Notes: generated by a model from the letters alone, not told the origin. 64,000 bases of DNA from Chiloscyllium plagiosum (GCF_004010195.1 NC_057744.1:29727377-29791376); one strand, 5' to 3'. Shown: positions 1,465 to 62,877, counted from the first letter of the stretch. Numbers and translations are program-made.

Positions 1465-3302
1465 ATTTGCACCCCAATATGCCAACATTTTCATGTACAG
1501 GTTCGAACAAGGCTTCTGCTCTATGCAAGACCTCCAACCATTACTATATACCAGGTACATTGACGACATTTTCTTCCTCTGGACCCATGGCAAGGAATCA
1601 CTGATAAAACTAAACAGTGATATCAACAAGTTTCATCCCACCATCAAACTCACCATGGACTACTCTCTACTATCTGTCTCATTCTTGAACACATGGACTC
1701 CATCAAGGATGGGCACCTCAGCATCTCACTCTACCACAAACCCATGGATAACCTCATGATGCTACACTTCTCCAGCTTCCACCCGAAACATATTAAACAG
1801 CCATTCCCTATGGACAAGCCCTACGCATAAACAGGGTCTGTTCAGATGAGGAGGAACGTGACAGGCACCTGGAAGTACTCAGGGACGCCTTCATAAGAAT
1901 GGGGTATGATTCTCAACTCATCGACTGCCAGTTCCAACATGCCACAGCGAGGAACCGTATTGACCTCCTCAGGAGACAAACACATGCTGTAACCGACAGG
2001 GTACCCTTCGTTGTTCAGTACTTCCCAGGAGCCGAACAACTATGCCATGTTCTTCGTGACCTGCAACACACTATCAATGAGGATGAGCACCTCACCAAAA
2101 CCTTCCCCACATGTCCACTGCTCGCCTTTAAATAGGCACCAAACCTCAAACAGATCATTGTTCGTAGCAAACTGCCTGGCTTTCAGGACGTTACCATACA
2201 ACCCTGTCATGATAGACGCTGCAAGATGTGTCAGAATGTAGACACGGATACCACAATTACGGGTGGGGACGCCTCCCACCATGTATGTGGCAGGTACTCA
2301 TATGGATGAGCCAACATTGTCTATCTCAAAAGCTGCAGGCAAGGATGCCCTGAGGCACGGTACATTGGCGAGACTAAGCAGAAGCTACGACAATGGATGA
2401 AGGGACGCCGCACAACAATCAACAGACAGGAGTGTTCCCTCCCAGTCGGAGAACACTTCAGCAGTCTGAGACATTCGACCTTGGACCTTCGGGTGACCAT
2501 CCTCCAAGGCAGACTTCGGGACAGGCAGCAACGAAAAGTGGCCGAGCAGAGGCTGATAGTCAAGTTCGGTACCCATAGGGAGGGCCTTAACTGGGAACTT
2601 GGGTTCATGTCACACTACAGGTGACCCCATTGCACTATACACAGACACACACTCTCCCACAGATACACACTCTCCCACAGACCCTCTCTCATACGCTCAC
2701 ACATACATTCCCACACAAACCCTCTCACTGACTTATACGCCTCTACACTTACATACACATCCTGTCTCACAGACATTCATAACCTCCCCCCTCCCCCCCC
2801 CCCCCCCCCCCCCACACACACACATACACATATAAGTTTGTGGGGTGAATTTGTACTTGCAGAATTATATTTTACTTTGCTCAAAAAACGCATGAATCCA
2901 TGTAAGATTCTGTAAATCTGTTTTTTAGATTAGAATCAGTCTGACCATTGTGGCACAGACAGCCTCACAGGGAAGCTCACACCTTCAATATGCTATCTGG
3001 GCCGACATGAGACCAATTGTTAAAGTTCACTTGAGAATGTAACTTTTTTAAAAAAGTTTTGCGTTTAACATATGAAAGAACTGAAATCAACATGTTCATT
3101 CTAGCAGATGAGAGACTTAACAAACAATCCAGGTCTTTTTCAATATATAATTTCAGTTACATCACATTGTAAACGTTTGCTACAAATTCTGTGTCTTACA
3201 ATCTTATTCTCCACAACCACCAGATGAAGGAGCAGCGCTCCGAAAGCTAGTGCTTCCAAATAAACCTGTTGGACTATAACCTGGTGTCGTGTGATTTTTA
3301 AC
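1465..3302 (+). mobile_element. 5'-truncated Penelope-like retroelement (RT C-terminal half, GIY-YIG endonuclease, 3' repeat of family A)
   Basis: FAPQYANIFM...YTRYIDDIFFLW RT motifs, CRQGCPEARYIGET...LPVGEHFS endonuclease motifs, CA/C-rich 3' UTR, terminal repeat at 3218-3302; TSD tctgtccaa at 1456-1464 and 3303-3311; frameshifted. Confidence 0.92.
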
Positions 3303-3789
3303 TCTGTCCAACGAAAACAGCCAAAGTCCCTCAGCCTTTCCTCGTAAGATCTTCTCTCCATACCAGGCAACATCCTGGTAAATCTCCTCTGAACGCTTTC
3401 CAAAGTTTCCACATCTTTCCTAAAATGTGGTGACCAGAACTGCACGCAATACTCCAAGTGCAATCGCACCAGAGTTTTGTACAGCTGCAGCATGACCTCG
3501 TGATTCCGAAACTCGATCCCTCTACTAATAAAAACTAACACATCAAAGGCCTTCTTAACAGCCCTATCAACCTGGATGGTAATTTCAAGGGATCTATGTG
3601 CATGGACACCGAGATCTCTCTGCTCATCTACACACCCAAGAATCTTACCATTCGCCCAATAATCTTTATTTCTGTTGCTCCTTCCAAGGTGAATCACCTC
3701 ACACTTTTTAACATTAAACTCCATTTGTCACCTCTCAGCCCAGCTCTGCAGCTTATCTACAATACTAGTCCGATAAAACCCTCAATTAA

Positions 3790-4238
3790 TAAAGAGCAAA
3801 GAAAATTTATAGACAAGGAACAGGCCCTTCGGCCCTCCAAGCCTGAGTTGATGCAAATCCACTCTCTAAACCTGTCGCCCAATTCCTAAGTATCTGTATC
3901 CTTCTGCTCCCCACCTACTCATGCATCTGTCCAGATGCATCTTAAATGAATCTACCGTGCCTGCCTCTACTACCTCTGCTAGCAACACGTTTCAGACACC
4001 TACCACCCTCTGTGTACTTTCTGTGTGTATCCCTCTTAAACTTTTCACCTCTCACCTTGAAAGTATGACCTCTTGTTATTGAATCCCTCATCCTGGGAAA
4101 AAGCTTATCTCTATCTACCCTGTCTATACCCTTCATGATTTTGTAGACCTCAATCAGGTCTCCTCAATCTCTGTTTTTCTAATGAAAACAATCCTAACAT
4201 ACTCAACCACTCTTCATAGTTAGCACCTTCCATACCAG
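3790..4238 (-). mobile_element. CR1 LINE 3' fragment
   Basis: MKGIDRVDRDKLFPRMRDSITRGH in ORF 3942-4136 followed by a CR1-type 3' UTR. Confidence 0.85.
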
Positions 4239-4711
4239 AAGATTTACCAAAAATTCAAATTTCAAAACCAGGCGCTGTCGAATCTTTTCTTTGTATCTTC
4301 CTCTGTCTTCTTTTCTTCTTCTTAGAGATTAAGTTTCACGGGTCACGGATCGATAAAGGTAACTTTAAGAGAGCTATTTTTCAGACAGTCTGTACATGCT
4401 GGTGGCTTGGCAGTTCTCCCCCAACTGTTCAATTTGTACCGGCCTTATACCCTCATAGCATCAGATTGTGTCATTGACTTTTAATATTGTCAATATACTA
4501 AATGCAAACTTGATTGGGATTTGGTATTTTTCAAATTATAAATAAACTGATTGGCCTAATTTGAACTTTTTTTTATCTCCAGGCAACCAGCTACACCAGC
4601 TGCTTGACCAAAAGGTTATATTGTATCTTGTTCAGAACACTTGGTGCTGTCGGGTAGATCTGCTAGCTTTTAACTTTCTTAAAAGGTACGCTCACCCGCA
4701 TCTTCATAACA

Positions 4712-5290
4712 CATTCCATGCCCTAACCACTTGCTGGATGAAAACGTTTTTTCTCACATCGCCGTTACTTCTTTTGCACATGATTTTAAAGTTATGCCCT
4801 CTCAGTCTGGTTCCTTTTACAAGCAGGAGCAGCTTCTTCCTTGCTCCTCTATCTCGTCCTCTAACAATTTGGAAATACTCTACCAAATCTTCTCTCCAAA
4901 GAGAACGGCCCCTTAAAACCCATTGTCATAACAGAAGCTTCTCATTCCTGAAGCAATCAATCATTCCTGCACTCTCCCCAATGCATTCAGATCTTTCCTA
5001 TTATGTAGCACCCACAACTATACAAAATACTGTGGCTGTGATCAATCAAGTGTCATCTAAGGTCCCTTCCTTCCTCTTGTACTCTATGCTAACAACACTG
5101 CGTGCTTTATTACCTGCTGTCTCCACTTGTCCTGCCACTTCCATTGATCTGTGCAAACACACACCCAGCTCCCTCTGTTCCTGCACTCCCTTTCAGAATT
5201 GTACCCTATATTTGATATTGTCTTTCAATGTTCTTCCTACCAAGGTATAACACCTCACAATTCTCTGAATTGAGACACATCAGCCACCAT
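4712..5290 (-). mobile_element. Old CR1 fragment abutting the LTR
   Basis: TRLRGHNFKI...VRKNVFIQQVVRAWNVL in ORF 4704-4886. Confidence 0.75.
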
Positions 5291-12510: not shown

Positions 12511-13163
12511 AATAAAGGTCCTAACTTCTGATTATTCCAGCAGACAATCTATTGACTGCACTGCAAGCTTGGCCCACGTTTCCTCAATGATTTCTCAGGA
12601 TAAACAGAGAAGATGCCATGCTGCCCATTGAAACATCAGCCTTTGGTACACTCTAGTAGCCTTATTTGGAGAATTTTCAGTATGAGGATTCAATTTATGG
12701 TGAAGAGTGATCACATCATTTGTTAAGATCAATGTATTTTTCTCTCTTGACTATGTTCTAATCTTTGGTAATTCTACATTCCTGCCAGGAAAGTCTAAAA
12801 TGAACAAACAACATCACTCTAGGGAACCTGGTGCCCTATGTTGGAAACAAATATAATGGCATAACATGAGTTAGAACCAGAGTGAGAAGAGAACCTGCAC
12901 TGTTGGTGTCACTGTGCATTACAAACCAGTCGTCTAGCCAACTGAGCTAACCAACCCTCAATTAGTACAGAATTATTGTATTATTGATTAAAAGACACAT
13001 TTTGTCCAAGCTTCTCATCTTGCACTCATCAGGACAATTCACAAGAATAGCAATTTAAGTGGAAATCCAACATTTATGCTGTATTTGAAGACAATACTAA
13101 GTGGTAGGTAGGTGAGCTTTGATTATTACAGGCATTGCCTTGGAGAATGCACCAACTAATTCT

Positions 13164-13362
13164 GATGTGGAGGTGCCGATGTTGGACTGGGGTGGACAAA
13201 GTTAAAAATAACACAACATCAGGTTGTAGTCCAACAGATTTATTTGGAAGCGCTAGCTTTCAAGGTGCTGCCACCTGATGAAGGAGCAGCGCTCTGAAAG
13301 CTAGTGCTTCCAAAATAAACCTGTTGGACTATAGCCTGGTGCTGTGTGAATTTTAACTTTGT
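13164..13362. mobile_element. Palindromic Penelope mini-element (family A)
   Basis: Two inverted arms; TSD cca(a/g)ctaattct at 13152-13163 and 13363-13374. Confidence 0.85.
13272..13306 (+). ncRNA. Minimal type I hammerhead-ribozyme motif (family A)
   Basis: cac-CTGATGA-aggagcagcgctct-GAAA-GCTA-gtg: conserved core, stem II, palindromic AGCU and 3-bp stem I. Activity not shown. Confidence 0.7.
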
Positions 13363-13934
13363 CCAGCTAATTCTACTTGACAGTTAGGCTTTGTTGAGAT
13401 TTCAAACCAAATGAGGAATGACCAACAAATGGCTTACACTTATTTTTGGTGAACTGAAACAGGCACCATGGGCGTACAAAGCACAAGGACCTGTATATTA
13501 ATGTATGCAGCTTCTCGAACATGCAAGTGCACCATACTGTGAGCCCAACTGACAAATCTAATTTGGTTGTCCAGTGTATTTCTTTGCATACTCAAGATTA
13601 TTCAACAAATGTTGTTCGTTGCAGTATCATATCTAAAGTTGGACATTGTGCTGCAGGGTTTGTAACCATGGAATGGCTTAGTGCAGTCAGTATTTTGCTT
13701 GTTATGAACAGCTGAAGTAGTATAATCTGCCAAATCTTGGAACATACAGTTAGCATTACACTGGCACTAAAATTCATACATCACCTTACTCACTTGTGTG
13801 ATAAGTAGAATGTCTTTTGGTCTTGATGGTAGCACCCTGATAGAGTTGAGCACCACTTGTACTGCAACTATACAATAGCAGCATGAAATAGTTAGTTTTA
13901 GTTATTTCGCAAAGCTTTGAGATTCTGAGACTCC

Positions 13935-14160
13935 TTTGTCTATCCAACTGTTCTTCTCTCCCTTTTGGGTCTATCCCCACTTATTGTCAGCTCCTTATCC
14001 CTTCTCCTTCCCTATCTTTTGCATAAAAAAAAACAATTTTTTTCCTAGCTACCATCAGTTCTGAGGAAGGGTGACTGGACCTAAAACATTAACTCTGATT
14101 TCCATCCACTAATGCTGCCAGACCTACTGAACCATTCCAGCAATTCTTATTTTTGTTGTT
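13935..14160 (+). mobile_element. Penelope 3' repeat (family C)
   Basis: agttCTGAGGAagggtgactggacct..aaacattaact followed by gctgccagacct.ctga; related copies near 21575-21680, 22300-22520, 27478-27638, 28570-28730, 41485-41650 and 56235-56415. Confidence 0.7.
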
Positions 14161-15374
14161 GTTGAGATTCCTTACTCTTCCAGGAAAATCTCATGTAGAC
14201 TCAGCACTTTCAGTACTGGCATTTACCAGTTATCATTAACTGTTACATTCTCTAAGGCAATAGCTTTACCAATCAGAGTCACTTGCAAATCAATCAGCAG
14301 TTTTCTCTCATATAGTTTAAATGTATAAAACAGCAAACATTTGCATACTCATTCCTCTAGCCTAGATAAAATTCTCCTTTTTTCAGTTCTAACCATGTAT
14401 CTTTAGGTACCGGACCGGCATCTGCAATTACATTTGATTTTGTGGCAATGTGAGTGATTTTCAGGTAGTATGGTTGAAGAAACAAACTCCAATGGAATAA
14501 CTTGATATTCTGAGTCTTAAGTCTTCCATAAATGTTTGCAGGTTGTGGTCAGTACAGTCTGTGGTCTCTTTGTGCCCAATTTGGACATGTCTGACAGTGT
14601 TTGAGAGCTAGTGATAAAGTGAGAGTTTTGTTTTCTTCCAAAAAGCGAAGTAAACATTAGAAATGGTAAATAACACAATTGGTCTCACTATTCTGGCTTC
14701 AACTTTGTAAAGGAGGATAGCTTCTAACCCAATGTTACTCACATCAATGGCTGCTTTAACTACTTTTTTAAAGTTTGGAGTTGCCAATTAAAATCGCCTA
14801 TCATTTTTTAATCCAAGCTACATTCACTTTTTCTGCAATAGATCTGTCAGTAATGCAGCTAAAGTTTGAGACAAACTTTCTGTAGAACATAAGTCCCCAA
14901 CAAACCCATGATTTTGCATTTTATTGTAGGAATAGGGAACTGTGTGACTGTTTCATCCTTTACAGCCCAGTGTAGTGCTCCTCCTTAACCCACTTTGTGT
15001 CCGAGGTAGGTCATTTGGGCCTTAGCAAACTCACTGTTTGTGAGATTGACAACAAAGTCAATGATTTCATTTTTTGGAAGGTTGTTGTAAAAAAGTGTTG
15101 CCGGACACAAAGAGATAGTCCAGGTACACTATGCAATTATATAACCATGGCACTGTCTGGTACACCAGCTTGGCAAATGTGGTTAGGTCATTACCGAGTC
15201 TGAACAGCATGATTCAACACTTGTGTAACCTGTTGATTTCCTTTTATGCAAACACTCAAGAGAACCTGCTAGTATCTCTTGAGTAAATCTATCTTTGTAA
15301 TATAGGTTCTTTTACTGATGCTATGTGTACAATCTTCCAGCCGGAGCATCAGCTAGGAGTCAGTTCTGGTCACT

Positions 15375-17950
15375 ACATTCACCCTTCAGTAGCCAGAACC
15401 TTGTGGAACCACCCAGCTCGGTTATGAGCACAACGGGAGAGCTCTAGGTTGCTAGGCAACATCTGTTGCTGTTTAGCTGATCCCCTCCTGATCCTGGGCC
15501 AGCTTAAGGGAGAGGCCTCTCCCAAATCCATATCATGCAGAGCGTGATGGTGGGGCAGCCTCACTTGTCTCTGATAAAGCTCTTCAATGTGATGACCAGC
15601 CTCATAAAATCTGTTTGCTGTCTGCACTTAGGTGGGTGAATAAGATGAGCATTTCTGTATTGGTTAGTCAGCTTTCAACATGGGCCGCACCCAAATCTCC
15701 ATCCAATTCATCCCACCTGCTCCCCTCATCATCTAGGTCAATGGTAATGGGATTAACTTGTCCCCTTCTCAATATTGATATTGCTCTCTCACCTTGACAT
15801 GACACAACCTTTGCTTTCTCTTCTCCAATCTGGTGTCTGAATCGGATAATTTACTTTCCTGAATCTCTTTGCCAATCTGAACCAGGCTTTTAAAGGTTCA
15901 CCTGTTAATCATAGGATCACCAGCACAAAGTCTCATGGTTAAGGCTTGGGTTTGGGTTGTGGCATCTTTTGTTGCCTCACAGTCCGGAAAAGTTTCAAGT
16001 TGTCTTGATAACCTAACATGGAGATCTCTAGATATTTTGCAATCAACCTATTCAGAGATGTAATTACATAACTCTGGAGCAGGTGGTACTGGAACCTGGG
16101 CCTTCTGGCTCAGAGGTATGGGCACTACCACTACCACAAAAGACCCCCATCTTCTTCTCTAAAAACCTCTCCTTCATTAGTTTCAGAGACTGTACACTTC
16201 GAATGGGGCAAACCCAAAGGACTTATTGGGTGACTGCATAATGATGGGCAGATGAGAGTCTATGAGAAAGTGAGGACTGCAGATGCTGGAGATCAGAGCT
16301 GAAAATGTGTTGCTGGAAAAGCGCAGCAGGTCAGGCAGCATCCAAGGAGCAGGAGAATCGACATTTCGGGCATGAGCCCTTCTTCAAGAATCAGGATGAG
16401 AGTCTATCCCAGTCTCAAGGGGAATTAATGGCAGTCTGCCCTGATTGTTGATGTTAGGTTGTGCAGGAACCACTCTCATGGCCCTGTCACGGAGGATGAC
16501 ACACTGACAACTCTCGCTGTGCCTCAAGTAGGTGACCTGAACTCTTTTGGACATGAAATTTGAGTCTTGATCCAATCAGATCTTGGTGGAAAGACCACAC
16601 CAGGTGAAGAATTGGTTCAACTCCATCATCATTCTTTTGGTGGATATGGTTCTCAGGGATGCAGCCTCTGGGAATTGAATAGGCATGCTCATGATTGTAA
16701 GGATGTGCTGGGAGCCCGCAAATGTTTTTGGCATGGCTCCACATAGTCCACTCACATTTTATTGAATGCTTCCCTAAAAGCAGGTGCAGGAATCATGATT
16801 TCAGATCTGACAGTCACTTCAGTGGCACCGTTACCTGTTGGTCACTGTCCACTCCTCATGTGCAGGCCTGTGGGGGGTGGAGATCTCCACTTCCTCCTCA
16901 GCGTCTCAGTTTTAATGTAGTAACACTCGGGAACTGCTCCCAAGTCAGCTTTAGTGTGAGCTGTCTGAGCTCATGTTTTTGACAAAGGGTCGACATGTTG
17001 GTTAGCTGATAAGCAAGTTTTATTCATTACCTCCTTGAGAGCTCGTGGACTTCCAAAAAAGGTTTTCGATAATCAGCCTAGAGGATCTCTGTTTGCAGTG
17101 CCATCTCAGAAGCTGAGCTTGTTTATCGATAGATAGGATATATACATGTAACTCCTTGACTAGGACCACAGTAACTACTGCAATTTCTGGTCAGAAGGTT
17201 ACTTCTGAGCAGTACAGGTTGGCTGGTACACATATCCTTTAGATCACTACAAGCCTCACCCTGAGGAAATGTGGCCACTCCTTATTTGAATATAAAATGC
17301 CAGCGATTCTTGTCTAACCTGATCTGCACTTTGATAAGTGATTTTCTAGAGATCTGCAACTGATATAAGAACCAAGGCTTGATCTACTGTGATCCCTGAC
17401 TGACTCCCATTCTCTGCCAAATAATTCTCACTGTATTTTCTGTAGTTCCTAGTAGTTGGCCTGGACATTGTTGGTGAAAGCACACAACCTTCTTGGCCTC
17501 ACTTTCCATCTTAGTCCGGAGAAGGATTCCCAACATTCCCCTCTGTCCCATCATTGCTAAATTTCACTCTTGCCACCTCTATTTTTTTCAGTTGGTTGTG
17601 GTGATGATGAAGAGAGGGTTTGTTTCATGGATCAGGTCCTAACCCTGAGCCAATATGACTGCCTGTTTCAGCACAGTCACTTTCTGCTCCCCTGGGGGCA
17701 CTCTCACTAGGAAGGAGATAGAGCTTTTAAACACCTCAGGGAAAATTACTTTACAGAGTTCTCCTAAGTGTTTTCTAGCTTCAGTCCCCACGCCCATTGG
17801 CCACAGCAAACTACATAATTCAGGTACATCTGAGGGTATGGAATTTTTGACATTCTTCACCAGCACTAACTGGTGTATGCATAAGATAGCCTTGTTTATG
17901 TCCTCTTAATCAGTGACACCTTTTTCAGACAAGCAGGAGTAAGCCTGAGA
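15375..17950 (-). mobile_element. Highly decayed Gmr1-like Gypsy internal region (gag, integrase, then RT start)
   Basis: Integrase-like KTFAGSQHILTIMSMPIQFPEAASLRTIST...DQDSNFMSK (16730-16545), RT-start-like HDMDLGEASPL...SPVVLITELGGSTRF (15545-15395), gag-like INKAIL...KNSIP (about 17900-17820). Confidence 0.7.
16264..16394 (-). mobile_element. Penelope terminal-repeat fragment (family B)
   Basis: Exact 13-bp TSD gatgagagtctat at 16251-16263 and 16395-16407. Confidence 0.85.
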
Positions 17951-17980
17951 GCTTATCATTCAGTAATAAAGACCAATGTT

Positions 17981-21270: not shown

Positions 21271-23029
21271 ATTTAATATAAAGTACTGTCATAAGAACAG
21301 TAATGGGCAAAATTTGAACGTGAACTCCAAAAGAACGTTGAGGATAGGTGAATAAAGACTACGTCAATGAGATGAGATTCAGAGAAGGTATTGAAGGAAA
21401 GGAAAGAGGGATAGAGTGGTTTTGGGAGGAAAGTGACAGTTAGCAGTGTTAGGATGATGCAAGTGGAGACGGACAATCAGAGGAATTCGATACCATGGAT
21501 TGGTATTAAACTGGGGAGATTCCAGAGATGCCGTTGAGGTGACGTCATGGAACATCAAGATGAGGATTGTAAAAATGAAACAAAAACAGAAATTGCTGGA
21601 AAAGCTCAGCAGGTTTGCGAACAACTGTGGAGAGAAATCAGAGATAATGTTTTGAATCATCTCAGAACAGAAAGAAGTGTAAAAGTGCAGCTTTGCTGGA
21701 TCTGTAAGCACAGGTCAAAAGTGGAACAAGCATGGTTTAGGACAGGGACTGCCCAGCATTGGATGAAAGGCTGTGCAACAGGATTGTGTAAACGTACTTT
21801 AAACTATATTTCACATATGCTGTGTCATACCTGGGAAGAATGATGAAAGGTTTGCAACAGAAACTTTGCCTTATAGTTGACGTGTCTTACACCTGGCCTG
21901 GATATGAACAATGGTTGGAAGTTACAACTCCCTAAACTGATGTGAAAGATATATTTTAAAAAGTGCCAATTTTCAAGATTGTACAGTGAAATACCTGCAC
22001 CCATTATCATCTCAGTTTCAGTTTATTACTTAGGAATAAACCCAATGAGCTAATTTTCACTTCAGATCATTTGCACTTTCTGAAGCGTAAAGCAGCAATT
22101 CATCCTCACTGGATCTGTCAGGTTGTACCCAAGGGAACTGTTCCACCACTTTCATGTTGTTCACACATCAGTAAAACAGTTCCCCAGAAAATATTAGCTT
22201 CTGTTTGGTTTGGATGCTGGTGTTGATGCCTTCTGGCTATATTTTATCGTGCTCTAGCTCGTAATCCTGTTTAGCAAATCCTATAGTTTTACCGTGAATA
22301 AGAGCAAAGTGCTGGAGATCTGAAAGTAAAATGGGAAGAACTGGAAAAACTCAGCAGGTCTGGCAGCAACTGTTGATAGAGAAACTGAACTGGCATTTTG
22401 AGTCCAATTACTTATATTTGGTTTCTGAAGCAGAGTCAATGGACTTGAAATATTAACTCTTTTTCCACAGAAGCTGCCTGAGCTGCTGAATGTCTCTGTT
22501 TCTATAACTTTCTGTTTTATTTTAAAGGTGCTAAAACATGTAATACATGTAACATGTAAGAGGTAACACCACCACATCTTTAAACCCAACTTATCAGATC
22601 CTTCACAGGCAGAAAGGTTAGTCACTGAAAGATTGAAGGTTGTTTGTAAGGAGCCAGAGGTGACATGAGATTTTGTCAGGTAGCATTTTGCTACAGTCTG
22701 GAATGCGCTGTCTGAAATAATGGTGGAAGTTCAATCATCGTTAAAAAAAAGATTTGCAGAGTGATCAGGAAACAGCAGGGGTTTGGAAACAATTGGATAC
22801 GATTTTTAAGGAGCTGATGGACCTTAGGTGCTGAGAAGAGACACCTTGTCAAAACCTTTCATCTTGCACTTATCAGGACAAGCGTAGAGTGCCAAAATTG
22901 AAATGATCACAACAATTTATACATCAGCAGAAATGTTTCAACAACATGTCTCTATTTTCAGCAAGTATGTCTTTAAAAATGGCATTTTTAAAGCAGCACT
23001 AAAGCATATTTAAGCAATGAGACTTTTTG

Positions 23030-36356: not shown

Positions 36357-36744
36357 CCAATGCTTTTGCAGCACCAATGCCTTGTTGAGGACTGGTATCA
36401 CCAACTTTCACAAACCATTTAACAAAGGCCCTATTGGCAGCTCATCGACCACTTTAAACATCCACTCAGTTGTGGCATATACAATATGCGGGATTCTGCA
36501 AAATGCACCGTAGCAACTCACTAAGTCTTCTTCAAACATCACCTTCAACAAGGACCACCTCAGAAGACAAGAGTATAGGTGTGTCAATGCACCACTTCCA
36601 ATTTCCCCTGTAAGCTGTGCATTAACAGATATTGCACATGTATCACTATGGTGTCGTAATCATTACATTAACTTGCAAACAGCAACATTCTATAAACATC
36701 AATGTGTGATCATGACATTTGTATTAATAATGTTGGTAAAAGGT

Positions 36745-43912: not shown

Positions 43913-44617
43913 GTAACCAACATGTCTATTTTTGATGCAAATTTCAAAGAATAAAGAGCCACTGCCTCTCTGTTGGCCTTTTCCTGTCTGATATTTCAAA
44001 ATGTTCATACGTAAAACAACATGAAGTTGGTTGGCACAATAAATATGGAAATGTGTTGCTGGAAAAGCGCAGCAGGTCAGGCAGCATCTAGGGAACAGGA
44101 GAATCGACGTTTCGGGCATTAGCCCTTCTTCAGGAATGAGGAAAGTTGGTCCAGCAGGCTAAGATAAAAGATAGGGAGGAGGGACTTGGGGGAGGGGCGT
44201 CGGAAATGTGATAGGTGGAAAGAGGACAAGGTGAGGGTGATAGGTCAGACTGGGGGGGGGGCGGAGAGGTCGGGAAGAGGATTGCAGGTTAGGAAGGCGG
44301 TGCTGAATTTGATGGATTCTGTTTGAGAATGTGGCTGAAGAGCTTCTATGCAGTTTAGATTATTATGCTGCACTTTGTTCTGTTTAAATACTTAATTTAC
44401 TTATTTCATCAGCTTCAGAGGAAGGGGGACTTCCTGTTTTTGTCTACATCTCGGTCAGTCTAGGTTATGGGGTGTTAACAACAGGTGGTAAGTGTTTATT
44501 ACTTGGGCTATTTTACAATGAACAGGGCTTGTTTTGTATCTGTTGTGTTGTGTTCCTCTTTGATCTGGAGTTCTTGCCACCAGTCTGCATTTTTAAATAT
44601 TTTCATAACTATTCTTG

Positions 44618-45091
44618 NNNNNNNNNNNNNNNNNNNNNNNNNNNNNNNNNNNNNNNNNNNNNNNNNNNNNNNNNNNNNNNNNNNNNNNNNNNNNNNNNNN
44701 NNNNNNNNNNNNNNNNNNNNNNNNNNNNNNNNNNNNNNNNNNNNNNNNNNNNNNNNNNNNNNNNNNNNNNNNNNNNNNNNNNNNNNNNNNNNNNNNNNNN
44801 NNNNNNNNNNNNNNNNNNNNNNNNNNNNNNNNNNNNNNNNNNNNNNNNNNNNNNNNNNNNNNNNNNNNNNNNNNNNNNNNNNNNNNNNNNNNNNNNNNNN
44901 NNNNNNNNNNNNNNNNNNNNNNNNNNNNNNNNNNNNNNNNNNNNNNNNNNNNNNNNNNNNNNNNNNNNNNNNNNNNNNNNNNNNNNNNNNNNNNNNNNNN
45001 NNNNNNNNNNNNNNNNNNNNNNNNNNNNNNNNNNNNNNNNNNNNNNNNNNNNNNNNNNNNNNNNNNNNNNNNNNNNNNNNNNNNNNNNNNN
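44618..45091. other. Assembly gap (474 N)
   Basis: Run of n characters. Confidence 1.
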
Positions 45092-45218
45092 CGCCCCCAC
45101 CCCAGTCTGACCTATTACCCTCACCTTGACCTCTTTCCACCTATCACATTTCCGACGCCCCTCGATGTAGTCACATTTCCGTATCTTTTATCTTAGCCTG
45201 CTGGACCAACTTTCCTCA

Positions 45219-45252
45219 TTCCTGAAGAAGGGCTAATGCCCGAAACGTCGAT
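45219..45252 (+). ncRNA. Minimal hammerhead-ribozyme motif (family B)
   Basis: ttc-CTGAAGA-agggctaatgccc-GAAA-CGTC-gat: core, perfect 4-bp stem II, ACGU palindrome, GUC triplet; stem I only 2-3 bp. Mirror copy at 44102-44136 (-). Confidence 0.6.
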
Positions 45253-45766
45253 TCTCCTGTTCCCTAGATGCTGCCTGACCTGCTGCGCTTTTCCAGCAAC
45301 ACATTTCCATCTCTGATCTCCAGCATCTGCAGACCTCACTTTCTCCTCAAAGATGGCACAATAAATATTCTATTAGTAGTGTCATGTTAGCTAAGGGTGA
45401 AGATAAGCAAGATCTCAGTGCATTGGTTGAATTAAAGTCCAACATATCCAGTCACCAAAGAGTAACAACTCAGAAATCAAACAGAATGCTGGGGTAGAAA
45501 ACCAAAGTATGGCAAAGAAATCAGAGAGAATCTTTCTTGAGCTTTATGTTGTTCCAGTAAAAGCACATCTTGAGTACCAAATCCAGTTATGATCACTGAA
45601 AGATACAAGAATGATTTTGAGGCCTTGGGGTTAATTCAGCGATGGGACTTTATCCCTAATGCTACAGAATTCAACAAAGACTGAAGAATTTGGCGTTGGA
45701 AAGAGGAGAAGGTGAACTGGTCTTTCTAAAGATGGGAAAAAAATGATAGAAGAAAAGCAGATCTGG

Positions 45767-46400: not shown

Positions 46401-49400
46401 ACATGGGATTGGCTCCTAGGTGGTGCAATGGGGGTGAAAACCCTTCTGCAAATGGAGAAATTGTTAAAAGAACTATCTGGTCTTCCTAAAGTAAGGTAGG
46501 CCATTTAACCTTTGACATCATTTCAACCAGAGAATGGAATGACATTTGAAAAATAAATTGCAGTAAACCAGCTCCATACAGGAAGGAACAACTTAAAATC
46601 TAGGTGTTAAATATAACAAAATAGTGGTGTGAAGTGACAGATGTTCTGTTTTAGAGGGCAATCGTGTCAAAAAGGAAACTGTTCCATCCTTTGCTTTGAG
46701 ATTTGTAGAACAATTGAGGCGACCAAAGGCAGAAAGGTCGAGCTCAGGTTTGAATGGGAACTAGGTGAAATGATGTAGTATGTTGCTGTTATGATGGTAC
46801 ATGGGCAGAATGGAAGAGTTTAGCAAAGCAGTCTCTATCGATCTTCCATTAGAAGAGGAGTTCAGCAAATTGGATCAGAGTGGTACATGGAAATTATTGT
46901 CCCATTGCAAAGAACTAAGTATATTGACAAAGGCATGGTTAAAAAAAAACAAATGGACAGTTACTGAAGCAAAAGGGAGAGGGGGAGGAATGGTGTATCT
47001 GCTATTAGTGGTGAAAATCATGCAAGATATTTTCCCAAATATAGAAATTAGTGACATGAAAGCTGAGGATAATCAGAATTCTAATTTCACTGTAAGATGA
47101 GAAAGGTTGTGAATAAAATGGAGTGAATATTCTGAATGGCTCTGCCAGAAAATGAACATTTCAGATATCAACCAGAAACATTAATTCCCTCTACTGTTCC
47201 TGCCTGATTTGCTCAGAATTCCCAGCATTATTTTTAATTTTCAGAATCCTAACATCTGCCATAATTTCCCTTTGTTTGTTTCAGATATCCTGCAACAGGG
47301 CCAGGCATTTAGGGTGATGACTGAAAGCTGGTATTACAGACCTGTTTTTATAGAAATGGGATGGGAGAAAACATAATCCAATCATTGTCGATTAATAACA
47401 GTTGTGCAAAGTCAGTAACGAAGGGAAGAACAGCAAAAAACATGGAAAGGAAAAATGTTAAAGTGTGGCTTCAGTGGAAAGGAAAGCAAAGTCCTTCAGT
47501 TCAGAGCAAGAGCAGGATGTAACAGCAACAAAACTGTTGAGGCAGTGAGAAATAATGAGAGGGATTGTAACAGGAAGTGCTTCACAGAGCATGCATGTTG
47601 GTATGTTTGAAAATCTTACATGTTCTGATTTTGGCATCTGTTTTTTTGAGATAATGTGTGATGCTGAAAGGTGAAAATAGGTTCAGCCAAGCAAACGAGA
47701 GCAGCCTGAGGTGGTCTTTATATATGATGCATCAACACTATTGTTTGTTTCTCCTTTCTGATTAGAACAGGAAACTGCCTTGTGCTTGATTTGATGCAGC
47801 AGGGTGGATTTCTGATGAGAAACCTCAGCTAATCTCTGATAATACAAAATGATGAAGATCATTTTGTTTTATCTCTCAGCTGTACAGCCTAAACAATAGC
47901 CAACTGAAAAGTAATAAATACCATGAGCTAATTAGTACTTCCTGTCAGGAGAGTTTCTACTTCCTGCTCCTATTGTTTCTGTTGACCAAACCAATCCATT
48001 TTTACTTATATTCCGATTTTTTTTCCAATATAACGTACAATCACAAGAACAATTTACTCTTTGTGCGTTGTCACTTCCTCTCAGATTGGTTCCATTTGTA
48101 CAGAAAGGAAAGGGGCATTGAGGCTAATGCTTTTGACAGGCATTAACAACTTAATTATGTATGTTAGTGAAATTGGACCTTTTTTTACTCACAATGCATG
48201 ATTGGTCTTTGTCAGTCAAATAATGGGAACAACTGAGCTGGAGATAGTTACTGATTCTTTTGTTTTCCAAAGAAACTTTAGCACCTGCATCAATATGTGA
48301 TTAATATGTTGTAGCTTGAAGGTCTTATGACAGACACTGTTGGAACTTCCGTGGTGCTGCTTATACTCAACATTTGTTTAAAGATCAATATGTTATTGAA
48401 ATAGCAGATGGAGCCACTAGAATATAGAAAATGGTGCAATTCAGCAGTGCAGGGGACCCTGAAGCCAGTGAATTGTATTTGAAATGTTGTACGAAATACA
48501 GCAGCCAATTTGAGTACAGTAAACAGCAAAGATAATCTGGGGGCTTTTGTGCAATGTTTGTTTGATGATGTATATTGGCCAGCACACTGGGAAAACTCCA
48601 TTAGCTCTTCCTCATACAGTGCAAGAGGATCTTTTACGTGCACCTTGGAGGGAAGATTTGGTTTGACATTGCGTTGAAAGGCAGAACATTTGACAATGAA
48701 GCACTCCCTTAGTGTTGCACTTGGTGTACCCACAACCTTGGATTCCTGCTTCTAATACTGCCCCTCAGCCTGACGTGAAAGATCATATCTTCTTTCCTGC
48801 TGAACTTCAGCTGGGTGCAACCCAGCTCATCCCTTCACTGCTTCAGTTATGAGCTCTCACACACTTCAATGAGCACCATTAAGGTCCTCAGCTGGTTATT
48901 CTGAATCAGATGGTATTGCAATGAGTGTTATATTGTTGGAAGTGAATTCTCTGGTGAGACGTTACACTAAGCCCCTGTCGAAGTGTTTAGGTGGAACTAA
49001 AATAGTCAATTTCTGGAGAAGAGCTGGACATTCCCCTGACCTTATGGTCAATATTCCTCTCTCCATCAGTACCAGGCCACTAAGAGTGGGCAAAGAGTGC
49101 GCTCATCTCAATTGTTGCCTGTGTAATCTTGTGTACTGTTCTATATAGCGACAAAGATCAAAATTATTTCATTGATTGTGAAGCACTGTGGAACATCCTA
49201 AGACCATGACGAGGTATATTAAAAATTAAAAGTACTTTCTTCATGCTCTCAGGCACCATTTCTGTGCTGTTTGAGGTCTCAAGCTAATGAGCAAACTCTG
49301 AGTTCCTTTTGTTCAGCTTTCTTTTAACATGCAAATGTGAAATGGGACTTGATTATAAGAAATTGAGGTCATAGCTAGATTGGAAACAGCGGATTTCTGC

Positions 49401-52513: not shown

Positions 52514-53044
52514 GAGTGTGTGACGCTGGAAAAGCACAGCAGGTCAGGCAGCATCCAATGAGCAGGAGAATCGATGTTTCGGGCATAAGCCCTTCATCAG
52601 GATGGAGTGGATAGATGGGAATGCTGATGGACAGGTCAAGAGGACGATGCAGAGTTGGAGGCTTGGGACTTGGATAATGTGGGGGGAGAGGAAATGAGGA
52701 AACTGGTGAAATCCACATTGATCCCATGTGGTTGCAGGGTCCTAAAGCAGAATATGAGGCATTCTTCCTCCAGACATTGGGTGGTAAGGGTTTGGCGATG
52801 GAGGAGGCTCAGGACCTGCATGTCCTTGGTGGAGTGGGAGGGGGAGTTGAAGTGTTCAACCATGGGGTGGTGGGATTGGTTGGTGCGGGTGTTCTAGAGA
52901 TATTCTCCATCCTGTTGAAGGGCTTATGCTCGAAACATCAATTCTTCTGCTCCTCGGATGCTGTCTGACCTGCTGTGCTTTCCCAGCACCACACCCCCGA
53001 CTCTGATATCCAGCATCTGCAGTCCTCACTCTCTCCTCGGAGAA
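52514..53044. mobile_element. Inverted-arm Penelope element (family B) with endonuclease C-terminus
   Basis: VEHFNSPSHSTKDMQVL...LEEECLIFCFRTLQPHGINVDF (ORF 52636-52863, -); inverted termini; TSD-like tga(g/a)agggtc. Confidence 0.85.
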
Positions 53045-55590: not shown

Positions 55591-55710
55591 AATTTCTGAG
55601 TCAGGATTCACTATCTAAAGAAATTGAGCCCTGCACAAGGACCCGTGAATAGACGAGCTTAAACAAACGCTGCACTGAACCAGATTATAACGCTAATGAA
55701 TCAATTGTAC

Positions 55711-55965: not shown

Positions 55966-56799
55966 CTGGGATTAGAGAAATCAATAGGTTATAATCTATT
56001 CATTTTATACATGGAATAACTCAATAGATTTTAAAAATTAAAGTAATAAAAATTTAATATACAAAAGAAAAGAACACCAAAAAATACAGCAAAAGATTCA
56101 AAGAGCTAATTCAAATGATTCATGCAGGCACACAGTGGAAGTGTGACAGATGCATTTCTGAAGACAACAGGAAAAGTGAGAGTTAGATCCAGTAAGACAC
56201 TAGTTTTGCCTTTTACTAAAGCTCTCTTCTTAATATTACTTCCATTCTTAACGTTTTGAGTCCAGTATGACACTTCTTCAGAACAAGACATTCCAAAGCA
56301 AAGTCATACTTCAAAACATCTACTGTGTTTCTCTCTCCACACCAACAGACCTGCTGAGTTTCTCCAGCATTTTGTTATTATCTCAGAATGCCAGCAACTG
56401 CAGCATCTTGCTTTCATTACTGACATTCTTAACACATCGTGTGGATAAATGGCAGCAGGAAAGAGAGTGCCAGACAGTGGAGCAGCTTGATGTGCTGGGG
56501 GTGGCGGCAGCTGAGAAGGATAGAGAGAGAGAGAAAGAGGGATGCTGAGAAACAGAGAGGGACACAATAGGAGATGTGTGAATCGTGATAGACTGATATA
56601 AAAAGTAACAGGAAGTTACTAAGTTTGTAAACTGTTTTGTATTTAGATTCTTATAGTTTGCCCAAATACCCATGGATTGTGCCACAAATATGCGCCAATC
56701 TCAAGTAACATAGCAATAACGACCTGTCAGTCTTTCACAGCTCTAATCTGTTCTTTCCCATCTCAATCATCCCTCTCCTCTCTGGTCTTATCCTGTTAT

Positions 56800-59250: not shown

Positions 59251-59319
59251 AATGTACTTCAACACCGCCCTATTCTCTGGCCAATATCTCTGTCTCAGAC
59301 TGGCTGCAGAGCTTCAGCA

Positions 59320-59910
59320 TAAGCTGGAAGAACAGCACCTGATTTTCCATTTGGGGAATCTGCAGCCTTCAGGATTCAATATTGAGTTCAATAACCTTAG
59401 TGCTTGAACTCTCCTATGTCCTAGACCCCAACCCAACACACCAGGCCTTGTGATTATATAGTCTGCCTTTACGCGCAACCCATTGTCAGCCATAAACAGA
59501 TTCTATGATGTAGAGGTGCTGAGGTGGAGAAAGTTAAAAAATTACACAACTTCAGGTTATAGTCCAACCAGTTTATTTGGAAGTACTAGCTTTCAGAGCG
59601 ATGTTCCTTCATCAGGTAGCTTGTGGCATAGGATCAAAAGATGCTATAAAGTTTGCTATAAATTTTGTGTCGTATGATCCTATCCACTAGCTACCTGAGG
59701 AAGAAGCAGCGCTCTGAAGGCTTGTACTTCCAAATAAACCTGTTGGGCCAAAAACCTGGTGTTGTGTAATATGTAGCATTAACAGTTTCTGTTAACAGCT
59801 ATTCACTCTCCCAGCCAGATCTTTATCCACTGTTTAGTCTGTCCAACTGTTCTTCTCTCTCTCTTTGGGCTCTATCCCCACCTGTCATTTATCCCTCAAC
59901 ACTTCCCCCA
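59320..59910. mobile_element. Penelope 3' fragment with nested palindromic family A element (59505-59776)
   Basis: KLEEQHLIFHLGNLQPSGFNIEFNN at 59321-59395; nested inverted arms; TSD-like cat(a/t)aacag(a/t)ttct. Confidence 0.8.
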
Positions 59911-60907: not shown

Positions 60908-61126
60908 TGATTTGGAGATGCCAGTGTTGGACTGGGATGTACAAAGTTAAAAATCATACAACACCAGGTTATAGTCCAACAGGTTTAATTGGAAGCACAC
61001 TAGCTTTCGGAGCGACCCTCCTTCATCAGGTGATTGATCAGGCTCCTGATGAAGGAGCGTCGCTCCAAAAGCTAGTGCTTCCAATTAAACCTGTTGGACT
61101 ATAACCTAGTGTTGTGTGATTTTTAA
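60908..61126. mobile_element. Palindromic Penelope mini-element (family A)
   Basis: Inverted arms of about 85 bp around a short spacer; TSD ctagattac(a/g)ta at 60896-60907 and 61127-61138. Confidence 0.88.
60998..61032 (-). ncRNA. Minimal hammerhead-ribozyme motif (family A) on the ROBO4 sense strand
   Basis: cac-CTGATGA-aggagggtcgctcc-GAAA-GCTA-gtg with all core positions intact. Confidence 0.7.
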
Positions 61127-61957
61127 CTAGATTACGTAAGGTTATTTGGTTTGTGTTGGACATCTCTATGACTCTAAGAGATCAGTACAGGGAGTGCTGT
61201 ACAATTGGATATAGGTGAGACCCTTTCAAACAGATGTGAAAGATCTTAGAATGTTGTTCCAGTAGAGAGCAGGAGAAATTTTCTGAGCTCTCTGGTTAAT
61301 ATTTTCAACTCAGTTGACACAAACTAAAACACATTTATTTAGTCATTTACCTCATTGCCGTTTGTAGGAGCCTACAGTGTACAAATTGCAGCAACTCCTG
61401 TAAAAATGACTATACTTCAAATAGTATTTCATTGGCTGTAAGGCATTCTGCAACATTTTGCTTTATAGTGAAAGATGCTATACAAATGCAAAATCATTTA
61501 TCTTCCTCCGACACACAATATTTTTATTGCACAGCTTCTAAATAAAAAAAATGCTGTGTCAGAGACAAGGATTTATGGTGAAGTGTTCCATCCAGACTTG
61601 GTCTCTTTTCCCAGGCACTAATTCATTTATAAAGATTTGATGTTTAAAGCCTGGTCTCAGATATTGGTTTATTAAATTACCACAAAGTAGAGCAAATTGT
61701 GTGTACTGATACAAATCTTGTGGAGGCTATTTTTAGCAACTAAAGTGCTCGTATTATTCAGAACAATTGTTAGCGGAGGTTACACTGATAGAGAGAAAGA
61801 ATAGCAGCATCAGCACATTGTCACAACATGATTTCCAACTTGATCGTGAATACACTTTATATCAGGCAACATAGTTCACGCAAAAGAAGCCAACTCTGTA
61901 AATAGCGCCGATTGCTCACATTTTAAAATTATTTTCCCCTGTGCTTTCTCATCCAGG

Positions 61958-62018
61958 TTCTGGATTAGTGGTGCTGGAAGAGCACAGCAGTTCAGGCAGC
62001 ATCCAAGGAGCTTTTTAC
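61958..62018 (-). mobile_element. 61-bp Penelope terminal fragment
   Basis: Exact 14-bp TSD ctttctcatccagg at 61944-61957 and 62019-62032. Confidence 0.8.
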
Positions 62019-62660
62019 CTTTCTCATCCAGGAACAATGGCAGATCAGTGGCCAGAAGAAGGGAATTCCTGGATTTTGACCCAGTGACAGTGAAAGAATG
62101 GTGACACATTTTGAAGGCAGGATGGTGAGTGGCTTGGATGGAAATTTGAAGGTGGTGGGTGTGCCCATGTATCTGCTGCCCTTGCCCTTATATCTATGTG
62201 TTGTCATGGGTTTGAAAGGTGCTGAGTGAGCATCTTCAGTGAATTTCTGCATTGTATCTCATGGATAGTACACACTGCTGTTACTGAGCATCACTGGTAG
62301 AGGGAAGTGGATGCTTGTGGATGTGGTGCCACTCAAGCGTGCTGCTTTATCCTGGATGGTGTTGGAACTGAACTCATCCAGGCAAGTGGGAAGTATTCCA
62401 TCACACTCCTTGTGCCTTGTAGATGGTGGACAGGCTTTGGGAGTCAGAAGGTGAATTACTCATTGCAGTAAACATAGCCTCTGACCAGCTCTTGTTGCTA
62501 TTTTATGTATGTGGCGAGTCCATTAGTGTTTCTGATCAATGGTAACCCCAAGGATGTTGCTGGTGGGGTATTCAGTGATGGTAACATCATTCAATGTCCA
62601 GGGGCAGTGACTGAATTGGGATAGTTATTGCCTGCTATTGTGTGGTGTGAATGTTAATTG

Positions 62661-62877
62661 AAAATGTATTGCTGGAAAAGCACAGCAGGTCAGGCAGCAT
62701 CCAGGGAACAGGAGAAGAGACATTTCGGGCCTAAGCCCTTCTTCAGAAATTCCTGAAGAAGGGCTTATGCCCGAAACGTCGATTCTCCTGTTCCCTGGAT
62801 GCTGCCTGACCTGCTGCGCTTTTCCAGCAACACATTTTCAGCTCTGATCTCCAGCATCTGCAGACCTCACTTTCTCC
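62661..62877. mobile_element. Palindromic Penelope mini-element (family B)
   Basis: Inverted arms; exact 15-bp TSD tgtgaatgttaattg at 62646-62660 and 62878-62892; hammerhead-like core at 62750-62783. Confidence 0.9.

Follow-up and report, generated by a model that had tools for sequence, protein, structure and literature searches.

Minimal type I hammerhead ribozymes at the ends of metazoan Penelope-like elements (PLEs) were described by Cervera and De la Pena in 2014 (PMC4209133), and PLE minimal hammerheads were also reported by Lunse, Weinberg and Breaker, as cited in PMC6765202. Multi-family pools of thousands of copies have already been published, with 4,000 ribozymes in six families in the coelacanth and 9,000 in eight in Xenopus (PMC4209133); in a recent preprint, one of nine Xenopus dimers was cleaved in vitro. 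PLE tails and two start sites of reverse transcription are likewise documented (PMC8557442, PMC3846280 and PMC11167929), in agreement with the 3'-end asymmetry described below.

The window analysed here comprises 64,000 nucleotides of the genome of the shark Chiloscyllium plagiosum. Judged by sequence, its motifs are the known minimal hammerheads of PLEs, and they very probably represent fossil 3' ends (pseudo-LTRs, pLTRs) of several endonuclease-bearing PLE families, each with a minimal type I hammerhead (Table 1). The predicted design, a core CUGANGA/GAAA with a stem II of 4-5 bp, a stem I of 2-4 bp and a 4-nt palindrome (AGCU or ACGU) replacing stem III, is the consensus architecture of PMC4209133 Fig. 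S3, as the original prediction had expected. What is new is the host lineage of a known kind of ribozyme, together with one testable mechanistic lead.

Table 1. PLE-derived insertions and remnants in the window, by family; hammerheads are given with their strand, and TSD denotes the flanking target-site duplication.
Family	Feature	Position	Strand	Hammerhead and other details	TSD
A	5'-truncated PLE, putatively Neptune-type	1465..3302	+	RT fragment with YIDD, Cx4CxxC linker, GIY-YIG (stops, frameshifts), 3' UTR, hammerhead 3218-3252 (+; U4 mutated), short end; profile iE 1e-104	9 bp, 1456-1464/3303-3311, read by eye
A	Head-to-head pair	13164..13362		13272-13306 (+), core intact, G10.1-U11.1; - arm begins in stem II, long tail	12 bp
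A	Head-to-head pair	35219..35374		35243-35277 (+; G12A, N7=C); long tail ends at ATG	12 bp
A	Head-to-head pair, tac/gta stem I in both arms	59505..59780		59584-59618 (-), 59692-59726 (+); TATAAA 38 nt upstream of + core; inserted into family C 3' UTR	10 bp
A	Head-to-head pair	60908..61126		60998-61032 (-), intact; 61043-61077 (+), G12A	13 bp
B	Solo arm	1164..1277	-	Begins in stem II, long tail	14 bp
B	Solo arm	16264..16394	-	Begins 7 nt before core (C3 mutated), long tail	13 bp
B	Head-to-head pair	36143..36357		36202-36235 (-; G12A)	
B	Solo arm	38572..38667	+	38572-38605, intact core, mismatch in stem II, lost palindrome	Looked for, not found
B	Head-to-head insertion flanking 474-N gap	44047..45351		44103-44136 (-) and 45219-45252 (+), intact; initiator-like TCATTCC at ribozyme 5' edge	17 bp, one mismatch
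B	Head-to-head pair	52514..53044		- arm: GIY-YIG C-terminal remnant 52657-52890, then 52570-52603; + arm begins 7 nt ahead of core (52909-52942)	10 bp
B	Tail-only arm	61955..62018	-		11 bp
B	Head-to-head pair, 6 nt between cores	62661..62877		62750-62783 (+), intact; 62716-62749 (-), stem I lost	15 bp
C	Solo arm	13937..14162	+	124 nt of upstream UTR; 14057-14094 (G12A); CATAAA at -39, initiator-like TCAGTTC at -4	11 bp
C	Partial arm	21570..21659	-		Not found
C	Head-to-head pair	22310..22498		22421-22458 (+; A9C; stem II GAGUC/GACUU)	
C	Head-to-head pair	27476..27636		Full core in neither arm	
C	Head-to-head pair	28571..28728		28628-28665 (-), intact core, damage to stem I and palindrome	
C	Tail-only arm	29413-29475	+		Not found
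C	Head-to-head pair	41478..41655		41519-41556 (+; C3, U16.1 mutated)	
C	Solo arm	47170..47278	+	Begins in stem II	11 bp
C	Head-to-head pair	56248..56423		56246-56285 (-; G12A)	10 bp
C	Remnant split by family A pair	59297..59900	+	GIY-YIG C-terminus 59297-59404 and 3' UTR; own ribozyme end absent	
C	Tail-only arm	60541-60567	+		Not found
D	Arm	12985..13163	-	Hammerhead-like motif 13002-13037 (A14G, H17=G; stem II 2 bp, palindrome 6 nt, stem I 5 bp); CATAAA 46 nt upstream	
D	Candidate endonuclease remnant	13443..13901	-	Upstream of D motif, past family A insertion	
D	Head-to-head pair	22812..22965		22845-22882 (-; G8A), TATAAA 45 nt upstream; + arm begins at about GAAA (22927), C at position 17	

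Nine perfect CTGAnGA/GAAA cores with a stem II of at least 3 bp are present on the two strands (nine per 63.5 kb, in one window only), against 0.35 +/- 0.48 (maximum 1) in 20 dinucleotide shuffles; cores with one mismatch and a stem II of at least 4 bp number 13 against 3.45 (maximum 8). Profile searches of the window delimited 39 arms in 25 insertions. Twenty-three of these arms span the whole core, in keeping with the "about 20" originally counted, and the motif, directly or as its reverse complement, is present at all 14 coordinates cited at that time. The copies had been called intact or decayed; decay is the rule, with 10 of the 23 core-spanning arms, from families A, B and C, free of core defects (none of the two in family D). 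A strict test, demanding all core bases, G10.1-C11.1, a stem II of at least 4 bp, a stem I of at least 2 bp and the palindrome, is passed by four copies (44133-, 45222+, 62753+ and 61029-), the first two being arms of a single insertion, and the other 19 are defective. All four bases (T, A, G, C) occur at position 7, free as foreseen; an extra A follows A9 in 21 of the 23 copies and is absent only from family D; G10.1 is universal, facing C11.1 in 15 copies and U in the remaining eight. The palindrome is AGCU in six of seven family A copies (A15.1 altered in one), ACGU in three of nine in family B, where the others show CpG-type changes to CA/TG, and AAGCUU in one of two in family D. The CpG o/e of the window is 0.26. 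The cut triplets predicted for families A, B and C (CUA, GUC and GUU, respectively) are right.

An Rfam scan of the window at E<=1, of the kind proposed originally, gave four matches with no hammerhead among them (the family B hairpin at 62661-62877 is weakly scored as mir-2432). Single-strand folding energies are unremarkable, with z above -1.4 in six of seven cases, and cofolding gave the palindrome-paired dimer as the minimum-energy structure in one case out of four (62753). The missing Rfam match, the short stems and the plain energies would suit chance motifs in ordinary repeats, without ribozyme ancestry, but the excess over shuffles (9 against 0.35), the sharing of core, G10.1 and palindrome among A, B/C and D despite unrelated tails, and a position in the pLTR identical to that published make this extremely unlikely.

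At least four families with covarying stems had been proposed, and four ribozyme sequences are indeed present. The tails of families B and C, which open with ATG at +46 to +52, are identical at 40 of 58 positions, a value reached in none of 500 shuffles, and tail comparison revealed no likeness of A or D to them; the four ribozyme sequences therefore belong to only three tail lineages, and B and C are, on their tail sequences, sister families. The family signatures hold with amendments. The GGGC/GCCC stem II and ACGU of family B are replaced at 38572 by GGAC/GCCC and ACAU, and the palindrome at 52570 is also ACAU; in family C, the copy at 14057 has G12A and GGGTG/GACCT, and that at 28628 reads AGAT instead of AGTT. 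The family D motifs exist, both with a 2-bp stem II and a mutated core (A14 and H17=G in one, G8 in the other). Family D is represented in the window by two broken copies and one fragment. The tac/gta switch in family A, reported at two sites, is a single event, since 59584 and 59692 are the arms of one TSD-bounded insertion; the two stem pairs changed on both sides within this family (111 of 500 shuffles) go back to that one event. In the alignment of B with C, 14 cells show a change in both partners (1 of 500 shuffles) and true partners are paired in 80% of cases, compared with 16-46% for slid partners, while a pair-count measure (five pairs, 195 of 500 shuffles) is not significant, all these counts being drawn from related sequences of this window. 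Stem covariation would lie mainly between families.

Families A and B each lie downstream of a GIY-YIG remnant, as predicted. The family A hammerhead follows RT, Cx4CxxC and GIY-YIG sequences with 82% identity to Chiloscyllium punctatum proteins; the remnant (1472-2621) aligns in colinear order to shark proteins and to RT+GIY-YIG proteins of 800-880 aa, and its direct Pfam search returned RT at E 0.04 only and no GIY-YIG. The linker, in the piece 2136-2306, conforms to CX2-5CxxC, and by this linker, on which the clade placement rests, family A would be a Neptune-type EN+ PLE; no such linker is preserved in the B, C and D remnants. The family B hammerhead lies 240 nt downstream of the GIY-YIG C-terminus (52657-52890; profile iE 4.8e-12, tblastn 1e-14 to shark protein P0159). 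The tie of family C, which had not been claimed originally, is weak, with tblastn E 1.6e-4 and profile iE 0.07 for 59297-59404 and a 48-nt UTR match (59834-59881 to 13935-13980, 89.6%; E 8e-11). The link claimed for family D was not confirmed, the candidate remnant 13443-13901 having no match in protein and profile searches; it may resemble a Penelope/Poseidon C-terminus, of the GIY-YIG type that lacks the Cys linker. All PLE copies in the window are truncated and broken. A partial-tandem pLTR-ORF-pLTR copy with an intact ORF is absent from the window, unless one is concealed by the N gap at about 44618-45091; this absence weakens the case for an active element and leaves that for a PLE remnant untouched.

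Fourteen head-to-head pairs hold 28 of the 39 arms. Their 3' ends are unequal, one long and one short, in all 12 scorable pairs, and lie 25-47 nt apart in 11 of them. By raw counts, TSD-like repeats of 11-17 bp flank 11 of the 24 inserts examined and repeats of 9-10 bp about five more. The occurrence of compact, TSD-bounded inverted-repeat units of 150-280 bp, the start of many arms at almost one place and the existence of non-autonomous PLE derivatives in vertebrates, including one chondrichthyan, might point to non-autonomous elements (MITE-like or retrozyme-like) spread from short masters. This is unlikely, however, since all 13 readable junctions are mutually different (some with microhomologies of 2-3 nt), the 3' ends of the arms are unequal and of PLE type, long arms extend into the endonuclease gene, and the tandem arrays needed for retrozymes are absent from the window.

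A "very large, diversified ribozyme pool" had also been proposed, which in a functional sense would mean dispersed, host-relevant copies cutting read-through or intronic transcripts. Four copies of 23 are intact by sequence, the density of perfect cores is high, and the window may be genic, with an exon-like frame at 63637-64000; this reading is nevertheless very unlikely, and the functional claim is not upheld. Besides the 19 defective copies, the window contains no tandem hammerhead units, the closest same-family, same-strand copies being separate insertions 1,351 and 1,414 nt apart, and the head-to-head pairs fold into long hairpins (70-86% of bases paired in all seven folded) that would bury the ribozyme; hairpins and lack of a tandem partner together argue for fossils rather than a ribozyme pool. 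Published monomers were uncleaved and dimers weakly cleaved (PMC4209133), and according to PMC11167929 the anole PLE ribozyme requires its protein and RNA-seq reads never end at the cut site. Cleavage probably mattered in active master elements, weakly and with protein help, since families with about 30% protein identity have retained the core (30% across 314 aa between the shark proteins P0001, A-type, and P0159, B-type), and dispersed copies would decay neutrally, mostly unable to cleave.

If the copies are fossil pLTRs, their formation can be outlined as follows. The palindrome would pair two copies into a double hammerhead, and the element protein would nick the two strands of the target with about 10-15 bp between the nicks, a stagger proposed to generate the TSDs. 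Reverse transcription of uncleaved RNA would begin at two sites, lying about 85 and about 125 nt downstream of the core; most cDNAs would halt early, mostly just past the 5' strand of the ribozyme or in stem II, and two of them, one tailed and the other tailless, would be joined head to head.

The 5' ends cluster at the first nucleotides of the ribozyme, where 14 of the 23 arms that get there stop within 10 nt; with zones picked after the data had been seen and ends curated by hand, position-free scan tests of this peak gave P of about 1e-4 and, separately, 0/1,500. None of 33 arms ends at the cleavage site, which fits uncleaved RNA as the template. Families A, C and D have a TATA-like box at a distance of 38-46 nt upstream, and families B and C an initiator-like motif at 4-8 nt upstream, canonical TATA being absent from family B. 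The break points at the ribozyme start may mark the RNA start of the element. We tentatively propose, at somewhat less than even confidence, that the transcript starts at the first nucleotides of the hammerhead and that reverse transcription initiated at both start sites of the 5' pLTR copy runs off the RNA 5' end, so that "strong-stop-like" cDNAs of 90-130 nt give rise to the inverted pLTR and the tiny head-to-head inserts. On this reading, cleavage would do no more than trim the first ~30 nt, cap included, the family D motif would count as a hammerhead despite a stem II of 2 bp, and the sites where PLE transcripts start and reverse transcriptase stops would be preserved across the genome as a very large fossil map. 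The pile-up could instead reflect events at the folded ribozyme, whether stalling of reverse transcription or joining by microhomology, or else end-calling, a serious possibility if short of an even chance. A second cluster in stem II (10 of 33 arms), where an RNA end is unexpected, the junction microhomologies, the post hoc zones and curated ends and the missing TATA of family B all suit it, but none of 23 arms ends within CUGANGA, the main peak falls past the structure, a TSD or the opposite arm fixes the position of 12 of its 14 arms, and the scan tests speak against it.

The systems of PMC4209133 share with this locus the core, the extra nucleotide between 9 and 10.1, G10.1-C11.1, the palindromic 15.2-16.2 and a short stem I, as well as several families per genome, mostly solo or in opposite-strand pairs near truncated PLEs. 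Cartilaginous fish, however, are absent from the species of its Table S1 and Fig. S3; here the family B stem I is mostly 2 bp, the 2-bp stem II of family D is shorter than in any row of Fig. S3, and the local density, in one window, looks far higher. From the canonical type I hammerhead, with a 6-bp stem I and loop contacts, families A-C differ in a stem I of 0-4 bp. Animal non-LTR retrozymes (bioRxiv 10.64898/2026.07.22.740005) are also PLE-derived, with a type I hammerhead, and occur in one chondrichthyan genome, but are defined by tandem units, of which the window has none. With Neptune-clade EN+ PLEs (linker motif as in PMC8557442) family A shares RT, Cx4CxxC and, at the C-terminus, GIY-YIG, and the locus shares inverted 5'-truncated copies, a one-sided tail (30-40 bp in such elements) and TSDs, although here every copy is truncated and broken. 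The Penelope pLTRs of Adineta vaga (PMC3846280) and the Penelope promoter of D. virilis (PMC2377424) offer further parallels: an inverted pLTR, TSDs of 8-10 bp, a 31-bp tail, a pLTR spanning the first codons, and TATA and initiator-like sequences within it. Head-to-head junctions are explained there by self-priming on an antisense template, however, and transcription in D. virilis begins 46 bp ahead of an intron of 75 bp that ends at helix I, with the ribozyme not at the first bases of the RNA. In the Anolis Poseidon element PAc (Frangieh et al. 2024, PMC11167929) the start codon lies at stem II, unlike here, but, as proposed for this shark genome, two start sites of reverse transcription set the tail, both strands are primed, uncleaved RNA is the template and the reading frame begins near the ribozyme.

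The minimal hammerhead motifs of the window are real, correctly named and mostly inert. At all 14 coordinates listed in the original prediction the motif is present, either on the + strand or as its reverse complement. Counting both strands, nine cores match CTGAnGA...GAAA perfectly and have 3 or more pairs in stem II, where 20 shuffles that preserve dinucleotides contain 0.35 on average (maximum 1); cores with one mismatch and a stem II of at least 4 pairs number 13, against 3.45 (maximum 8). By family profiles and end mapping, 39 arms (hammerhead-bearing or tail-only end-pieces of Penelope-like elements, PLEs) were assigned to 25 insertions, of which 14 are head-to-head pairs and 11 are solo arms, and PLE inserts cover about 10% of the window. 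The announced set of about 20 copies, intact or decayed, is borne out by 23 arms spanning the whole core, but intact ones are few: 10 of the 23 are without a core defect, and only four (44133-, 45222+, 62753+ and 61029-) pass a strict test combining an intact core, G10.1-C11.1 as the first stem II pair, 4 pairs in stem II, 2 pairs in stem I and the palindrome. CpG-type changes account for many of the core and palindrome defects (G12A after C; ACGU to ACAU or AUGU), and the CpG ratio of the window is 0.26. The suggested Rfam check gave four matches at E<=1 in the window, with no hammerhead among them; those to mir-2432 and MIR6024, far below the gathering score, are the head-to-head pairs 62716-62780 and 27483-27598, the RNA hairpins of such inserts being long and mistakable for microRNA precursors.

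Four hammerhead sequence types, families A-D, occur at the PLE ends. Families A, B and C show the features that define minimal PLE hammerheads in the published consensus (PMC4209133): an additional A following A9, a G in position 10.1, a palindromic 15.2-16.2 and a short stem I. Family D, represented by two core-mutated copies and one fragment, has a stem II of 2 pairs, a 6-nt palindrome and a stem I of 5-6 pairs. The downstream tail is common to B and C (40/58 positions identical, a value reached in 0/500 shuffles), and the tails of A and D resemble neither; the four ribozyme sequences thus represent three tail lineages. Covariation of the stems, as originally claimed, is upheld in part. In the B+C alignment 80% of the cells are paired and both sides have changed in 14 cells (1/500 shuffles), but the count of covarying pairs is not unusual (195/500), and most changes separate B from C, with one within C (G-C to A-U at 10.2-11.2). 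The tac/gta switch reported for family A does not represent two events, as both arms belong to one insertion. At E<0.1, a covariance model trained on 14 B+C copies found these again, along with three partial B/C arms, but missed every A and D copy, so that it yields no cross-family alignment. A subfamily of B is marked by a GGAC/GCCC stem II, which contains an A-C mismatch; it is present in two distinct insertions, 36202-36235 and 38572-38605, and this variant was therefore carried by the master.

Protein-coding remnants in the window are collected in the table, together with other matched features. The frame at 2310-2621 shows 70-82% identity to proteins of Chiloscyllium punctatum and Hemiscyllium ocellatum (10 of the 11 matches being so named), which points to a bamboo-shark-like fish as the source of the window. 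The Cx4CxxC-type linker of the family A element is a mark of Neptune or Nematis elements (PMC8557442). With a profile built from 154 homologues, the predicted link of each of families A, B and D to its own GIY-YIG remnant was recovered for A and B and failed for D; Pfam found no GIY-YIG on the window's own translated pieces. The best relative of the family B endonuclease is a Chiloscyllium protein, and its identity to the A-type protein is only 30%. Downstream of the weaker family C match lies a family A insertion, followed by a UTR that matches the one preceding the C ribozyme at 14061 (89.6% over 48 nt). A candidate family D endonuclease is the segment 13443-13901, which we take to resemble a Penelope/Poseidon C-terminus; it gave no match with the local profile of Neptune-type matches, Pfam or PDB sequences, and none of 118 candidates from a family D homologue search reached E<=0.001. 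The family A pairs 13164-13362 and 59505-59780 are nested PLE insertions, the first within the 3' UTR region of a D copy and the second within that of a C copy.

Features matched in the window
Feature	Positions	Strand	Evidence and remarks
U4 snRNA match	8040-8166	-	59.9 bits, above gathering score; internal deletion; probably a pseudogene
Family A 5'-truncated PLE	1465-3302		YIDD, Cx4CxxC linker, GIY-YIG; stops and frameshifts; A ribozyme at end
Non-LTR retrotransposon remnant, GC-rich	17885-19349	+	RT E 8e-16, zf-RVT E 1e-11
Family B endonuclease C-terminus	52657-52890		Profile iE 4.8e-12; 55 nt-240 nt upstream of B ribozyme at 52600
Family C endonuclease C-terminus, weaker match	59258-59404		E 1.6e-4

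Besides these, the window holds many fragments that we presume to be CR1-like LINE 3' ends and SINE-like repeats, e.g., 3140-3727 (-), 26059-26367 (-), 30183-30563 (-) and 57428-57796 (-). An acidic and Ser-rich open frame at 63637-64000 (-) ends at a GT donor at 63637; it includes a stretch that we assume to be typical of the cytoplasmic tail of Roundabout (ROBO), in which case the window would lie within a host gene on the - strand or immediately behind it.

Published minimal hammerheads do not cleave as monomers and cleave weakly as dimers (PMC4209133), cleavage of the anole PLE hammerhead depends on its protein (PMC11167929), and in a preprint one of nine Xenopus dimers cleaved. The very large, diversified ribozyme pool proposed originally is not supported as a pool of active copies: most are inert, no same-family copies on the same strand lie nearer to each other than 1,351 nt in the window, and all seven head-to-head pairs folded are predicted to form hairpins with 70-86% of bases paired. 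Folding of single strands gave little information (z above -1.4 in six of seven), as did cofolding, where the minimum-energy structure was the palindrome-paired dimer in one of four cases. The window's copies are best read as fossils, and selection on the ribozyme as having acted in master elements.

The insertions share the architecture published for PLEs, an inverted 5'-truncated copy, a one-sided tail and a short target-site duplication (TSD) (PMC8557442, PMC3846280, PMC8969392), for which in vitro work offers an explanation: RT starts at two internal sites, and both strands serve for priming (PMC11167929). As raw counts without a shuffle background, 11 of the 24 inserts examined are bordered by direct repeats of 11-17 bp that differ at no more than one position, and about five more by repeats of 9-10 bp. 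The 3' ends are unequal in all 12 scorable pairs (28571 and 22812 being unscorable), one arm being 25-47 nt longer in 11 and about 100 nt longer in one. A retrozyme origin was rejected for want of tandem units, and a MITE family for want of junctions common to copies. A 474-N assembly gap at about 44618-45091 falls exactly between the arms of an intact family B inverted pair and may hide a longer, young, assembly-resistant element. In all four long arms read, the family B tail can be translated without interruption starting with an ATG at +46, and two of three C arms have the same start; rotifer pseudo-LTRs (pLTRs), the corresponding element ends, likewise include first codons (PMC3846280). 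The B/C tail peptide was the N-terminus of 0/159 collected proteins, and the ATG is a candidate ORF start.

The 5' ends of the arms, hand-curated for all 39, are far from evenly spread. With C3, the first core nucleotide, as 0 and the cut at about +28, in zones drawn after the data were seen and with only arms reaching a zone as its denominator (arms of one pair not being independent), ends fall at +64..+34 in 6/39 arms, at +33..+24 in 0/33, at +23..+9 in 10/33, at +8..+1 in 0/23, at 0..-9 in 14/23 and at -10..-130 in 4/9, another five being longer or cut by a gap. With no ends around the cut, the idea that they are set by the cleavage site was rejected. Per nt, arms stop at a rate of 0.083 in the 0..-9 zone and of about 0.005 upstream and downstream of it, and the peak persists when only the 30 arms whose ends are fixed by a TSD or by the partner arm are counted (12/19, in 10/18 insertions). 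Position-free tests against a constant stop rate gave P of about 1.2e-4 in a count scan and 0/1,500 in a hazard scan; the left-arm end of the D pair 22812 had been moved from -7 to -47 on a weak upstream alignment (90/2,000 shuffles), lowering the peak from 15 to 14. In the simplest reading of these positions, transcripts start with the first bases of the ribozyme, and cDNA synthesis often runs off at this RNA end. In a rival one, the pile-up reflects stalling on the folded ribozyme or joining through microhomology there, processes from which the stem II cluster at +23..+9 probably derives.

Upstream of the core, two consensus motifs, TATA-like and initiator (YYANWYY), were scored in copies with upstream sequence kept, against backgrounds of 0.0016 and 0.0125 per nt, respectively. 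TATAAA, CATAAA or TACAAA lies 38-40 nt before C3 in A (2/2) and C (1/1), and a TATA-like box 45-46 nt before it in D (2/2); a canonical TATA is found in none of three B copies. Initiator-like motifs with their A at -4 or -8 occur in B (3/3) and C (1/1) and are absent near the core in A and D. In family C, at 28610-28630 (-), a branch-point-like TTAAC at the cut site is followed by a pyrimidine tract and, about 20 nt on, by an AG just before the ATG, the acceptor-like AG being present in 5/7 copies scored by eye; the family A tail has a similar stretch at 35320-35345 (+) and ends at an ATG. Together with the known PLE introns, these features suggest that the ribozymes may lie inside a 5' UTR intron.

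The class of PLE minimal hammerheads, its link to PLEs, the co-occurrence of several families in one genome and pairs on opposite strands have already been published (PMC4209133), and multi-family pools are on record for fish, coelacanth, frog and reptiles. Cartilaginous fish are absent from Table S1 and Fig. S3 of that paper and from the supplement of PMC8557442; a retrozyme preprint (bioRxiv 10.64898/2026.07.22.740005) includes one chondrichthyan genome, and Penelope is among the repeats named for the whale shark (PMC8455134). Our literature search turned up nothing on PLE hammerheads of sharks or on an accumulation of 5' ends at the ribozyme, although subscription journals, repeat databases and preprint supplements may cover both. 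The ribozyme finding adds a new host lineage and no new kind. Nine perfect cores in 63.5 kb correspond to about 140 per Mb in this one window; were it typical, this single-window extrapolation would place shark pools far above the 4,000-9,000 copies published for coelacanth and Xenopus. What makes the finding valuable is mechanism, since the role of the PLE hammerhead and the origin of inverted pLTRs are described as open questions (PMC8557442, PMC11167929, PMC3846280); end positions in thousands of short shark copies would test questions of PLE replication directly, and the signal makes such a test cheap. In Penelope of D. virilis an intron lies between the start site and the ribozyme (PMC2377424), unlike in the shark families if their RNA begins at the ribozyme itself.
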